From Escherichia coli (GTDB taxonomy: Bacteria > Pseudomonadota > Gammaproteobacteria > Enterobacterales > Enterobacteriaceae), in the NCBI RefSeq assembly GCF_003018115.1, contig NZ_CP027457.1: 64,000 nucleotides of DNA; one strand, 5' to 3'. The notes beneath the pieces are model-generated. The model saw nothing but the letters and a program-made list of their open reading frames with translations. It was not told the DNA's origin and made no database searches. The stretch's first letter is position 1; each line of letters opens with the position of its first letter. Below are positions 57,579 to 61,886 of this stretch, one piece after another. The translations under genes were made by a program, and so were the position numbers.

Positions 57579-57654
57579 TGGCTCCTCTGACTGGACTCGA
57601 ACCAGTGACATACGGATTAACAGTCCGCCGTTCTACCGACTGAACTACAGAGGA
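57579..57654 (-). tRNA. asnV: tRNA-Asn (GUU anticodon)
   Basis: 76 nt; reverse complement reads TCCTCTGTAGTTCAGTCGGTAGAACGGCGGACTGTTAATCCGTATGTCACTGGTTCGAGTCCAGTCAGAGGAGCCA; gene name assigned from K-12 synteny. Confidence 0.95.
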
Positions 57655-57908
57655 ATCGTGTGAACGGGGCGCATATTAATGGCAGTGCATGGTGATGTCA
57701 AAGGGTGAAATGCATTTTTTTGTTTGTTTGCTGTCAATTTCAACAAAGTGATGAGATTTCAATCTTATTGGTAATGAACCATCGTGGTGCATACCCTCCT
57801 TTTATAGGGCAGGGGAACGCGACTGCTGGTGAAAAGAGCCAATGACGAATCTATCATAATCTCTTATTTGACAGTTGGTTAGCTTGTACATCAACGCCAA
57901 AATAAAAC

Positions 57909-57924
57909 TGGCAAGCATCTTGCA
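57909..57924 (+). promoter_or_regulatory. Sigma-54 (-24/-12) promoter candidate for nac
   Basis: TGGCAAGCATCTTGCA fits the TGGCAC-N5-TTGCW consensus, 56 bp upstream of the nac start. Confidence 0.65.
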
Positions 57925-57979
57925 GTCTGGTTGTAAGTAATGGCGGCACTTGGGCCGATTCTCAAAAACCGGAGGCAAC

Positions 57980-58897
57980 ATGAACTTCAGACGCCTGAAA
58001 TACTTCGTAAAAATTGTAGATATTGGTAGCCTGACCCAGGCTGCTGAAGTATTGCATATCGCACAACCAGCGCTCAGCCAGCAGGTTGCCACACTGGAAG
58101 GTGAGTTAAATCAACAACTTTTGATTCGCACAAAACGAGGCGTTACGCCAACAGACGCCGGAAAAATTCTCTATACCCATGCGCGGGCCATTTTACGTCA
58201 GTGTGAGCAGGCCCAACTGGCGGTGCATAACGTTGGTCAGGCATTATCGGGGCAAGTCTCGATTGGCTTTGCGCCAGGAACCGCTGCGTCATCCATCACC
58301 ATGCCCTTATTACAGGCGGTTCGCGCTGAATTTCCGGAGGTCGTTATCTATCTTCATGAAAATAGCGGTGCAGTGCTTAACGAAAAACTGATAAATCACC
58401 AACTCGATATGGCGGTGATTTATGAGCATTCCCCTGTGGCTGGTGTATCCAGTCAGGCTTTACTGAAAGAAGATCTTTTTCTGGTAGGAACTCAAGATTG
58501 CCCGGGGCAAAGCGTTGATGTTAATGCTATTGCGCAAATGAACCTCTTTCTCCCCAGTGATTACAGTGCTATTAGACTTCGTGTTGATGAGGCTTTTTCC
58601 CTACGGCGACTCACGGCAAAAGTCATTGGTGAAATTGAGTCTATTGCCACGCTTACCGCAGCGATTGCGAGCGGCATGGGCGTTGCAGTATTACCCGAAT
58701 CGGCCGCGCGTTCGTTATGTGGCGCAGTAAACGGGTGGATGTCACGCATTACCACACCTTCCATGAGTCTCTCTTTGTCACTAAATTTACCCGCCAGAGC
58801 GAACTTATCACCACAGGCGCAAGCAGTGAAAGAGTTGTTAATGTCAGTGATGAGTTCTCCAGTGATGGAAAAAAGGCAGTGGCAATTGGTGAGCTAA
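57980..58897 (+). CDS. nac: Nitrogen assimilation control protein (LysR family)
   Basis: ORF 57950..58897 trimmed to MNFRRLKYFVKIVDIGSLTQAAEVLHIAQPALSQQV (305 aa). Confidence 0.95.
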   Translation: MNFRRLKYFVKIVDIGSLTQAAEVLHIAQPALSQQVATLEGELNQQLLIRTKRGVTPTDAGKILYTHARAILRQCEQAQLAVHNVGQALSGQVSIGFAPGTAASSITMPLLQAVRAEFPEVVIYLHENSGAVLNEKLINHQLDMAVIYEHSPVAGVSSQALLKEDLFLVGTQDCPGQSVDVNAIAQMNLFLPSDYSAIRLRVDEAFSLRRLTAKVIGEIESIATLTAAIASGMGVAVLPESAARSLCGAVNGWMSRITTPSMSLSLSLNLPARANLSPQAQAVKELLMSVMSSPVMEKRQWQLVS

Positions 58898-58998
58898 GCG
58901 TTATATCGGGATGGAATAAGATGCGGGTTTTTATTATTTGTTATGCCGGGCATTAGACTTTAACAATAACGGGAAATCTGAACTGCCCGGAGTTTACC

Positions 58999-59949
58999 GT
59001 GAATTTCCAACAACTAAAGATAATCCGCGAGGCTGCACGTCAGGATTACAACCTGACAGAGGTTGCGAATATGCTTTTTACCTCACAGTCAGGCGTCAGC
59101 CGTCATATTCGGGAACTGGAGGATGAACTTGGCATCGAAATATTTGTTCGACGAGGTAAGCGACTGCTGGGCATGACTGAACCGGGCAAAGCATTACTGG
59201 TCATTGCAGAACGTATTCTGAATGAAGCCAGTAATGTTCGTCGGCTTGCAGACCTGTTTACCAACGATACGTCTGGCGTTCTCACTATTGCAACGACGCA
59301 TACTCAGGCACGTTATAGCTTGCCAGAGGTCATTAAAGCTTTTCGCGAACTTTTCCCGGAGGTTCGGCTCGAGCTAATCCAGGGGACGCCACAGGAAATT
59401 GCGACGTTGTTGCAAAATGGCGAAGCTGATATTGGTATCGCCAGCGAGCGTTTGAGTAATGACCCGCAGCTCGTCGCCTTCCCGTGGTTTCGTTGGCACC
59501 ATAGTTTGCTTGTTCCACTCGATCATCCCTTGACGCAAATTACACCGTTGACGCTGGAATCAATAGCGAAGTGGCCGTTAATTACTTACCGACAGGGGAT
59601 TACGGGGCGCTCACGTATTGATGACGCATTTGTCCGCAAAGGTTTGCTGGCAGATATTGTATTAAGTGCGCAGGATTCTGATGTCATTAAAACCTATGTT
59701 GCTCTTGGGCTGGGGATTGGATTAGTTGCCGAACAATCCAGCGGCGAACAAGAGGAAGAGAATTTAATCCGTCTGGATACGCGGCATCTTTTCGATGCCA
59801 ATACTGTATGGTTGGGACTGAAGCGAGGGCAACTTCAACGTAACTATGTCTGGCGCTTTCTGGAACTTTGTAATGCAGGACTGTCAGTTGAGGATATCAA
59901 GCGCAAGGTGATGGAGAACAGTGAAGAGGAAATTGATTATCAGATATAG
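58999..59949 (+). CDS. cbl: Cys-regulon transcriptional activator Cbl (LysR family)
   Basis: 316 aa; MNFQQLKIIREAARQDYNLTEVANMLFTSQSGVSRHI; GTG start. Confidence 0.95.
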   Translation: MNFQQLKIIREAARQDYNLTEVANMLFTSQSGVSRHIRELEDELGIEIFVRRGKRLLGMTEPGKALLVIAERILNEASNVRRLADLFTNDTSGVLTIATTHTQARYSLPEVIKAFRELFPEVRLELIQGTPQEIATLLQNGEADIGIASERLSNDPQLVAFPWFRWHHSLLVPLDHPLTQITPLTLESIAKWPLITYRQGITGRSRIDDAFVRKGLLADIVLSAQDSDVIKTYVALGLGIGLVAEQSSGEQEEENLIRLDTRHLFDANTVWLGLKRGQLQRNYVWRFLELCNAGLSVEDIKRKVMENSEEEIDYQI

Positions 59950-59986
59950 CAAAAAGCCCGCTATAAAAGCGGGCTTTTCAGAAATT

Positions 59987-60062
59987 TGGCTCCTCTGACT
60001 GGACTCGAACCAGTGACATACGGATTAACAGTCCGCCGTTCTACCGACTGAACTACAGAGGA
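59987..60062 (-). tRNA. asnU: tRNA-Asn (GUU anticodon)
   Basis: 76 nt identical to the copy at 57579..57654; preceded on the plus strand by hairpin 59956..59978. Confidence 0.95.
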
Positions 60063-60222
60063 ATCGCTGTTGAGGCACATCTTAACGGCGAAAAATCTTT
60101 TGTCAAACCCGATTTTTAAATTTCCCAACTGTTTGCCGTTTCTATCAACAGTTTGTTGCATTTGCAGACAATTTGTTGGCGAAAATCTTTGCAGCTTTGC
60201 TGATTCTCCCTCATTATTTGAA

Positions 60223-61710
60223 ATGTGGTTTCACTTTCTGCAATTAAGGTCGGCTTTGAATATCTCCTCTGCTTTACGCCAGGTTGTTCACGGCACTCGC
60301 TGGCACGCTAAACGCAAGAGCTACAAAGTGTTGTTCTGGCGCGAGATAACCCCGCTTGCTGTTCCTATCTTCATGGAGAATGCCTGTGTCCTGTTGATGG
60401 GGGTTCTGAGCACTTTTCTGGTCAGCTGGCTGGGAAAAGATGCGATGGCCGGCGTGGGATTGGCGGACAGCTTCAATATGGTCATTATGGCTTTTTTTGC
60501 TGCTATCGATCTTGGTACTACTGTCGTTGTGGCATTTAGTCTCGGTAAGCGGGATCGACGACGAGCGAGGGTGGCGACGCGGCAGTCATTGGTGATCATG
60601 ACGTTGTTTGCCGTACTGTTGGCAACGCTTATTCATCATTTTGGCGAACAAATTATTGATTTCGTCGCGGGTGATGCCACGACAGAAGTTAAAGCACTGG
60701 CGTTGACTTATCTGGAGCTGACGGTACTCAGTTATCCAGCAGCTGCCATCACTCTTATTGGTAGCGGGGCACTTCGTGGTGCAGGGAATACGAAAATACC
60801 GCTATTGATTAACGGTAGCCTGAATATTCTTAATATTATTATTAGCGGCATATTGATTTACGGCCTTTTCTCCTGGCCGGGACTGGGATTTGTCGGGGCA
60901 GGGCTGGGTTTAACCATTTCTCGTTATATTGGCGCAGTTGCAATTTTGTGGGTGCTGGCGATTGGTTTTAATCCTGCGCTAAGGATTTCGTTAAAGAGCT
61001 ATTTTAAACCGCTGAATTTTAGCATTATCTGGGAAGTCATGGGGATTGGTATTCCCGCGAGTGTCGAATCAGTGTTATTTACCAGTGGTCGGTTATTAAC
61101 CCAAATGTTCGTTGCCGGGATGGGGACCAGTGTTATTGCCGGAAATTTTATCGCGTTTTCAATTGCGGCTCTTATCAACTTACCCGGAAGTGCGCTCGGC
61201 TCTGCTTCTACGATCATTACAGGCCGAAGGTTGGGGGTAGGGCAGATAGCGCAAGCAGAGATTCAGTTGCGGCATGTGTTCTGGCTGTCCACTCTTGGAT
61301 TAACGGCCATCGCCTGGCTAACGGCTCCCTTTGCCGGGCTTATGGCATCGTTTTACACCCAGGATCCACAAGTTAAACATGTCGTTGTGATTCTGATTTG
61401 GCTAAATGCTTTATTTATGCCTATTTGGTCCGCCTCATGGGTGCTACCCGCTGGATTTAAAGGTGCTCGTGATGCCCGTTACGCCATGTGGGTTTCGATG
61501 TTGAGCATGTGGGGTTGTCGGGTTGTCGTCGGTTATGTGCTGGGAATCATGCTTGGCTGGGGTGTGGTTGGTGTCTGGATGGGAATGTTTGCCGACTGGG
61601 CTGTGCGGGCCGTGCTGTTTTACTGGCGAATGGTTACTGGACGTTGGCTATGGAAATACCCTCGATCCGAGCCGCAAAAGTGTGAAAAAAAGCCAGTTGT
61701 GTCGGAATAA
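60223..61710 (+). CDS. yeeO: MATE-family efflux transporter
   Basis: ORF 60070..61710 trimmed to MWFHFLQLRSALN (495 aa); polytopic membrane protein. Confidence 0.85.
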   Translation: MWFHFLQLRSALNISSALRQVVHGTRWHAKRKSYKVLFWREITPLAVPIFMENACVLLMGVLSTFLVSWLGKDAMAGVGLADSFNMVIMAFFAAIDLGTTVVVAFSLGKRDRRRARVATRQSLVIMTLFAVLLATLIHHFGEQIIDFVAGDATTEVKALALTYLELTVLSYPAAAITLIGSGALRGAGNTKIPLLINGSLNILNIIISGILIYGLFSWPGLGFVGAGLGLTISRYIGAVAILWVLAIGFNPALRISLKSYFKPLNFSIIWEVMGIGIPASVESVLFTSGRLLTQMFVAGMGTSVIAGNFIAFSIAALINLPGSALGSASTIITGRRLGVGQIAQAEIQLRHVFWLSTLGLTAIAWLTAPFAGLMASFYTQDPQVKHVVVILIWLNALFMPIWSASWVLPAGFKGARDARYAMWVSMLSMWGCRVVVGYVLGIMLGWGVVGVWMGMFADWAVRAVLFYWRMVTGRWLWKYPRSEPQKCEKKPVVSE

Positions 61711-61810
61711 ACGACAAAATGCAGATTATTTCAGCAAACGATTTCAAATTTAAAAAACAGGCTTTGACATTGTGGGTGGGCATCGCTAATATTCGCCTCG
61801 TTCTCACGAT

Positions 61811-61886
61811 TCCTCTGTAGTTCAGTCGGTAGAACGGCGGACTGTTAATCCGTATGTCACTGGTTCGAGTCCAGTCAGAGGAGCCA
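61811..61886 (+). tRNA. asnW: tRNA-Asn (GUU anticodon)
   Basis: Same 76 nt sequence on the plus strand, ending in CCA. Confidence 0.95.

Follow-up and report, generated by a model that had tools for sequence, protein, structure and literature searches.

The window analysed here, a stretch of 64,000 nucleotides (64 kb) from Escherichia coli (NCBI RefSeq assembly GCF_003018115.1, contig NZ_CP027457.1), contains three identical tRNA-Asn genes which bracket the genes nac, cbl and yeeO. We consider it practically certain that this locus represents the usual asnV-asnU-asnW cluster of the E. coli chromosome and that all three genes are empty as integration sites for genomic islands; no point against the identification of the cluster has been found. 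E. coli usually has four identical genes for its single tRNA-Asn isoacceptor, and three of them make up this cluster. Its copies are also parts of slightly longer direct and inverted repeats, and the rearrangements to be expected from recombination between these repeats have been identified in other genomes of the same species.

Identification of the asnV-asnU-asnW cluster

The scan of the window with ARAGORN returned exactly three tRNA genes, all of them tRNA-Asn with the anticodon GTT, and the tRNA model of Rfam assigned 72.6 bits to each copy against a gathering score of 29. An Rfam scan of positions 53000-64000 for other RNAs detected nothing beyond these three. In direct comparison the 76-mers of asnV, asnU and asnW do not differ from one another or from any of the three copies of K-12 DH1 (76/76). 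Their coordinates, strands and mutual identity agree with an earlier note on this DNA (Table 1). The same note had described three identical copies in alternating orientation, of which the identity stands, while the orientation has to be corrected, as the order of strands is minus, minus, plus. The 23-nt 3' end of the tRNA, with up to three mismatches allowed, occurs three times in the window and not once in 100 shuffled sequences, which excludes chance. Queries containing the tRNA found a median of four places per E. coli genome, which fits the usual four asn copies. The fourth one, asnT, presumably lies about 13 kb past the end of the window, as on the K-12 map; it is the usual site of the high-pathogenicity island (HPI).

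The neighbourhood of the three genes is equally characteristic. Megablast with positions 56500-63100 matched 5,424 of the 5,426 complete E. coli genomes, and the annotation of the matched regions lists ldtA, tRNA-Asn, nac, cbl, tRNA-Asn, yeeO, tRNA-Asn and yeeN. The window shows the corresponding synteny, ldtA-asnV(-)-nac-cbl-asnU(-)-yeeO-asnW(+)-yeeN. The proposal that the tRNA copies bracket nac-cbl and yeeO is supported by these annotations as well as by the Pfam families of the encoded proteins, and the outer flanks are formed by ldtA and yeeN. In K-12 DH1 the genes, their order and their orientations are the same (ldtA/erfK-asnV-nac-cbl-asnU-yeeO-asnW-yeeN), and all six spacers that flank the tRNA genes are collinear with those of the window, with 95-100% identity (55/55, 315/326, 35/37, 158/160, 100/100 and 428/449 identical positions). 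K-12 derivatives show only point differences from the window, with approximately 98.4% identity over 6.6 kb. The spacer between asnW and yeeN is the most variable of the six and contains indels relative to K-12.

Table 1. Positions of genes, predicted transcription signals and repeats at the asnV-asnU-asnW locus (coordinates of the 64-kb window)
Feature	Position	Strand or orientation	Properties	Basis
asnV, tRNA-Asn(GUU), 76 nt	57579..57654	-	3' end toward ldtA	ARAGORN, Rfam, K-12 identity
asnU, tRNA-Asn(GUU), 76 nt	59987..60062	-	3' end toward cbl	ARAGORN, Rfam, K-12 identity
asnW, tRNA-Asn(GUU), 76 nt	61811..61886	+	3' end toward yeeN	ARAGORN, Rfam, K-12 identity
V/U repeat	within 57575..57678; partner 59983..60066	direct	84 nt, 100%	
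U/W repeat	59982..60066 / 61807..61891	inverted	85 nt, 100%	
V/W repeat	57575..57678 / 61787..61890	inverted	104 nt, 97%, 4108 nt between arms	
Right arm of both inverted repeats (V/W, U/W)	61787..61891			
Predicted sigma-70 promoter of asnV	57673..57701	-	TTGACA-17-TAATAT, 10/12	consensus scan
Predicted sigma-70 promoter of asnU	60079..60106	-	TTGACA-16-TAAGAT, 10/12	consensus scan
Predicted sigma-70 promoter of asnW	61764..61792	+	TTGACA-17-TAATAT, 10/12	consensus scan
Predicted terminator of asnV	57545..57572	-	hairpin and U-run, -18 kcal/mol, z = -5.1	
Predicted terminator of asnU	59948..59978	-	hairpin and U-run, -19.5 kcal/mol, z = -4.9	
Predicted terminator of asnW	61948..61978	+	hairpin and U6; 13-bp stem followed by six U	
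ldtA	56588..57523	+	backbone gene; stop 55 nt from asnV 3' end	
nac, LysR-type nitrogen assimilation regulator	57980..58897	+	within the invertible segment	annotation under matches, Pfam HTH_1/LysR_substrate
cbl, LysR-type regulator	58999..59949	+	stop 37 nt from asnU 3' end	annotation under matches, Pfam
yeeO, MATE efflux transporter	60223..61710	+		annotation under matches, Pfam MatE
yeeN	62336..63052	-	backbone gene; end 449 nt from asnW 3' end	

The three integration sites are empty

All three sites, asnV, asnU and asnW, are empty in the window, as had been claimed, with backbone sequence following directly on each of them. The terminal 16 or 23 nt of the tRNA represent, according to the literature, the core at which asn-targeting islands attach. 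Neither the 16-nt nor the 23-nt 3' end has any additional full or partial copy within the 64 kb, even with two to three mismatches allowed, and the proposed search for partial 3'-end duplicates (up to three mismatches) matched the three genes only. Likewise, no direct repeat of the 16-17 nt at the tRNA 3' end, as would mark the distal boundary of an island, was found within the 64 kb. No remnant of an integrase was detected in the window by tblastn with the P4-type integrase of the pks island of strain E15 (the best match, with E = 0.63, is noise), and none of the three copies is followed by a tyrosine integrase gene at a distance of up to about 200 nt from its 3' end. The backbone genes begin 37-449 nt from each tRNA (ldtA 55, cbl 37, yeeN 449), as in K-12, and the sequence that adjoins the 3' side of asnW is backbone as well. 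A comparison with island-bearing genomes, which the earlier note had recommended, is clear-cut: in occupied sites a tyrosine integrase gene is found about 160-180 nt past the tRNA 3' end (E15, 2016C-3878, JE86-ST05, KL53 and Z142-1), whereas backbone genes are found here. The integrase of JE86-ST05 differs in sequence from that of the pks island.

Of the 5,426 genomes, 4,664 (about 86%) have the standard ldtA-tRNA-nac junction and 4,980 (92%) the standard junction on the yeeO-tRNA-yeeN side, so the window exhibits the majority configuration. A higher count of 4,858/5,426, obtained from the megablast search described above, was rejected as too high for loci that are standard throughout, since even in a locus broken at asnV 84% of the query remains in one place.

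An empty site could also be the result of a loss, if an ancestor had carried an island in at least one of the three genes and this island had since been precisely excised. Since integrase and excisionase remove an island without a scar and with exact restoration of attB, a lack of remnants is compatible with past occupancy, and islands at asn sites are common in E. coli. However, there is no positive evidence for past occupancy, and the simplest reading of spacers that are collinear with K-12 as well as the majority of E. coli genomes is the ancestral empty state, which makes such a history quite improbable in our view.

The role of asn tRNA genes as island hotspots, which the earlier note had taken from established knowledge, is documented in two publications and was evident in the occupied genomes that we inspected. 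Auvray et al. (2021; PMC8209727) reported 100% identity among the three asn sequences, and insertion of the pks island at asnW, asnV or asnU by a P4-type integrase. A review (PMC7545054) lists PAI-asnT (HPI) and PAI-asnW (colibactin), both named as pathogenicity islands (PAI), in strains 536, CFT073, UTI89 and others, as well as insertion of the HPI or an ICE (integrative and conjugative element) at asnV. The HPI (at asnT, occasionally at asnV), ICEEc1 and ICEKp1 are all attached at the 3' end of the same tRNA sequence (PMC8209727, PMC7545054), and none of them is present in the window.

Predicted transcription units

A sigma-70 consensus scan over 5 kb, in which matches were scored out of 12, placed each of the three best matches (10/12) directly upstream of a tRNA gene. 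On the 3' side of the tRNAs, hairpins followed by U-runs are predicted, and these folds were matched by no shuffled sequence. The terminator of asnU overlaps the stop codon of cbl (59947-59949) with its low-coordinate end and is 77% similar to that of asnV; the latter lies between asnV and the stop codon of ldtA and thus probably serves both directions. From these sequence signals, the three genes are predicted to form three independent one-gene transcription units, each with a strong promoter and an intrinsic terminator of its own. An additional stable hairpin with a GAGAC...GUCUC core is located between asnW and its terminator (61894-61923). The open reading frame (ORF) of yeeO reaches upstream to a TTG codon at 60070 (546 aa) and would cross the predicted promoter of asnU, while the RefSeq form of the protein comprises 495 aa, with a start equivalent to 60223; the exact YeeO protein is widespread and occurs in many E. 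coli assemblies (717 index blocks).

Repeats and rearranged loci in other genomes

Copies 1 and 2 (asnV and asnU) are direct repeats, and copy 3 (asnW) is inverted relative to both of them; in all three pairs the repeat runs slightly past the ends of the tRNA. The first and third copies had been described as a perfect inverted pair, which is true of the tRNA genes themselves, but the repeat outruns them and extends over 104 nt with 97% identity. The earlier note had considered neither the second and third copies, which form a perfect inverted pair, nor the direct pair formed by the first two. These sequences have two roles. The 3' ends of the tRNA-Asn genes are attachment sites for P4-family integrases of the HPI, of the pks (colibactin) island and of related ICEs, and the copies, being identical over 84-104 nt, are substrates for recombination as well. 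The inverted pairs V/W and U/W can flip a segment of 4.3 kb or 1.7 kb, respectively, and the direct pair V/U can delete nac-cbl. All three outcomes, i.e. the 4.3-kb flip, the 1.7-kb flip and the loss of nac-cbl, are present in other E. coli genomes. The two features to be expected of repeat-mediated rearrangement, repeats of sufficient length (84-104 nt) and breakpoints of natural variants at the tRNAs, are both found at this locus.

In order to count the variants, a junction was built for each expected recombination, and those of the 5,426 complete genomes were scored that contain at least 80% of the junction in one place. The nac-tRNA-yeeN junction, diagnostic for the V/W inversion, is found in 265 of them, which bears out the suggestion that an inversion between the first and third copies could occur. 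Among the inverted genomes listed, almost all share one haplotype with 95.9% identity to the query (Nissle 1917, CFT073, 536, ABU 83972, ATCC 25922, NU14); we take these strains to be classic pks-positive members of phylogroup B2, the presence of pks having been checked in E15 only. The junction is also present in JE86-ST05 and KL53, and altogether in at least three lineages. The reciprocal, island-free junction, ldtA-tRNA-yeeO(3'), was found in a single genome, SE15. The difference between 265 and 1 is explained by an island located between ldtA and the tRNA in the inverted genomes (E15, JE86-ST05, KL53). In SE15 the nac-cbl-yeeO segment is inverted without an island, but an extra 0.9-kb fragment of the 3' part of yeeO (an annotated pseudogene) lies between nac and the third tRNA, so this is not a simple reciprocal inversion. 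A clean inversion between the first and third copies is therefore essentially unseen in island-free genomes, a point that goes beyond the earlier note.

The inversion of yeeO alone (U/W), recognized by its cbl-tRNA-yeeO(3') junction, was found in 32 genomes, which represent several haplotypes with identities between 97.1% and 99.4%, and in strain I4 this junction has no adjoining island. The ldtA-tRNA-yeeO(5') junction, expected for the V/U deletion of nac-cbl, was found in 35 genomes. The deletion is clean in strain 2016C-3878, the one genome inspected for it; SL112, on the other hand, matches in two pieces with cbl still present, so that at most 35 genomes have a clean deletion. In KL53, the V/W inversion is found together with the U/W inversion. 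The island that follows the tRNA in this strain encodes an integrase, a SpnT-like protein and a type III restriction-modification system, and yeeN is split by ISVsa5. The breakpoints coincide with tRNA copies in I4, E15, 2016C-3878, JE86-ST05 and KL53, and only partly in SE15.

The orientation polymorphism is not new, as Auvray et al. (2021; PMC8209727) described it for the asnW-asnU-asnV region of 4309 bp. The span 57579-61886, to which the earlier note had referred, amounts to 4,308 bp and represents the same unit. A close counterpart of the window, besides the K-12 locus, is pks configuration 1A in phylogroup B2 (PMC8209727; Nissle 1917, CFT073, 536), which has the same three tRNAs and the same 4.3-kb nac-cbl-yeeO segment. 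However, in configuration 1A this segment is inverted and a P4-type integrase with the 54-kb pks island follows the yeeO-side tRNA, whereas in the window the orientation is the standard one and an island is absent. Both the role of the asn genes as island hotspots and the inversion polymorphism are thus already established.

Mechanism of the rearrangements

Homologous (RecA-type) recombination within the tRNA repeats is the simplest mechanism for all three rearrangements, and we infer that this is how they arise. This mechanism is supported by the island-free U/W inversion in I4 and by the V/U deletion. Three caveats apply to the picture drawn here. Firstly, the promoters and terminators have been predicted from consensus matches or from folding. 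Secondly, among the complete RefSeq E. coli genomes the best match to the window reaches 99.0% identity over 6.6 kb and 98.1% over 22 kb, which indicates a chromosome of the E. coli type whose lineage, possibly Shigella or a rare E. coli clade, is not exactly represented in the set of complete genomes. Thirdly, and of direct concern to the mechanism, clean V/W inversions occur almost only beside an integrase-bearing island on the ldtA side. The site on this side is occupied or disrupted in approximately 726 genomes (5426 - 4664 - 36), 265 of which are inverted, while the approximately 4,700 genomes that are island-free there include one complex V/W inversion. A few events inherited clonally could account for this association, and so could an integrase-dependent route.

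According to the latter possibility, the natural 4.3-kb inversions were made by the island's P4-type integrase acting on two inverted att sites, and not by general homologous recombination; the integrase would pair the 3' end of one tRNA with the att site of an island at the other tRNA. In every inspected genome with the nac-tRNA-yeeN junction an integrase gene lies about 160-180 nt from the tRNA beside the flipped segment, the numbers just given point in the same direction, and Auvray et al. (PMC8209727) remarked that the inversion "probably accompanied pks insertion". However, most of the 265 genomes share one haplotype and may thus go back to one or a few ancestral events, and the U/W inversion without an island in I4 shows that these repeats can be inverted independently of islands. 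Two orders of events have to be considered: either the island was inserted at asnV and the inversion between the tRNA repeats followed, or it was inserted at asnW and its distal att repeat then recombined with asnV. Since the integrase and the homologous routes give the same final structure, the sequence cannot separate them. On balance, we regard the integrase route as possible though rather unlikely; if it were true, an island-free strain like the one analysed here would be without appreciable inversion isomers. A further version, in which the 4.3-kb inversion is mechanistically coupled to island integration and the P4-type integrase flips the segment by recombining an att site of an island at one tRNA-Asn copy with the inverted copy, possibly locking the island in place, would account for the inversions beside islands in 265 genomes and for their near-absence in island-free ones, but we consider it unlikely.

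It is also conceivable that nac, cbl or yeeO is regulated by the inverted tRNA pair, acting as a programmed invertible switch, as both orientations of the segment exist in E. coli. Against this idea, the locus contains no gene for a dedicated recombinase of the fim/Hin type, its only genes besides the tRNAs being ldtA, nac, cbl, yeeO and yeeN. Moreover, nac, cbl and yeeO have their promoters within the segment, which carries these along when it flips, and the orientation is fixed within lineages (one dominant haplotype) and not mixed. We therefore regard a switch as extremely improbable, and homologous recombination between the tRNA repeats remains our preferred explanation.

Chromosomal context of the cluster

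The window has a GC skew of +0.06 and most of its genes are located on the plus strand, which makes it the probable leading strand. In that case, replication meets transcription head-on at asnV and asnU, and asnW alone is transcribed co-directionally. A head-on orientation is unusual for highly expressed tRNA genes. Under the same assumption, the V/W inversion would make asnU co-directional and would turn nac, cbl and yeeO head-on.

Upstream of the cluster, the window comprises a block of plus-strand ORFs from position 1 to approximately 35400, followed by his, yefM-yoeB, yeeZ through tmaR(yeeX), and cobUST. From his as far as ldtA, the window matches, e.g., strain 90-9280 collinearly and in one piece. 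The gap between tmaR(yeeX) and cobU (53692-54149) comprises only about 460 nt and contains neither CP4-44/IS5, as in K-12, where such material is found upstream of cobU, nor PAI-cobU, as in extraintestinal pathogenic E. coli (ExPEC); in strain 90-9280 a small EutP/PduV remnant is annotated in this gap. Our guess, based on the ORF layout, is that the block at the beginning of the window contains the colanic-acid, O-antigen, gnd, ugd and wzz genes. The region 24001-32000 has a G+C content of 0.319, compared with 0.477 for the whole window, and a GC skew of +0.18, and as it lies immediately ahead of the his operon we suspect that it corresponds to a horizontally exchanged O-antigen cluster.

Significance

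The locus represents textbook E. coli backbone and by itself adds little that is new. For the annotation of the genome, its value is that it identifies a strain without a pks, HPI-type or ICE island at asnV, asnU and asnW. The counts of the rearranged junctions, on the other hand, provide a baseline for the rearrangement of the chromosome between tRNA repeats among the 5,426 complete E. coli genomes.

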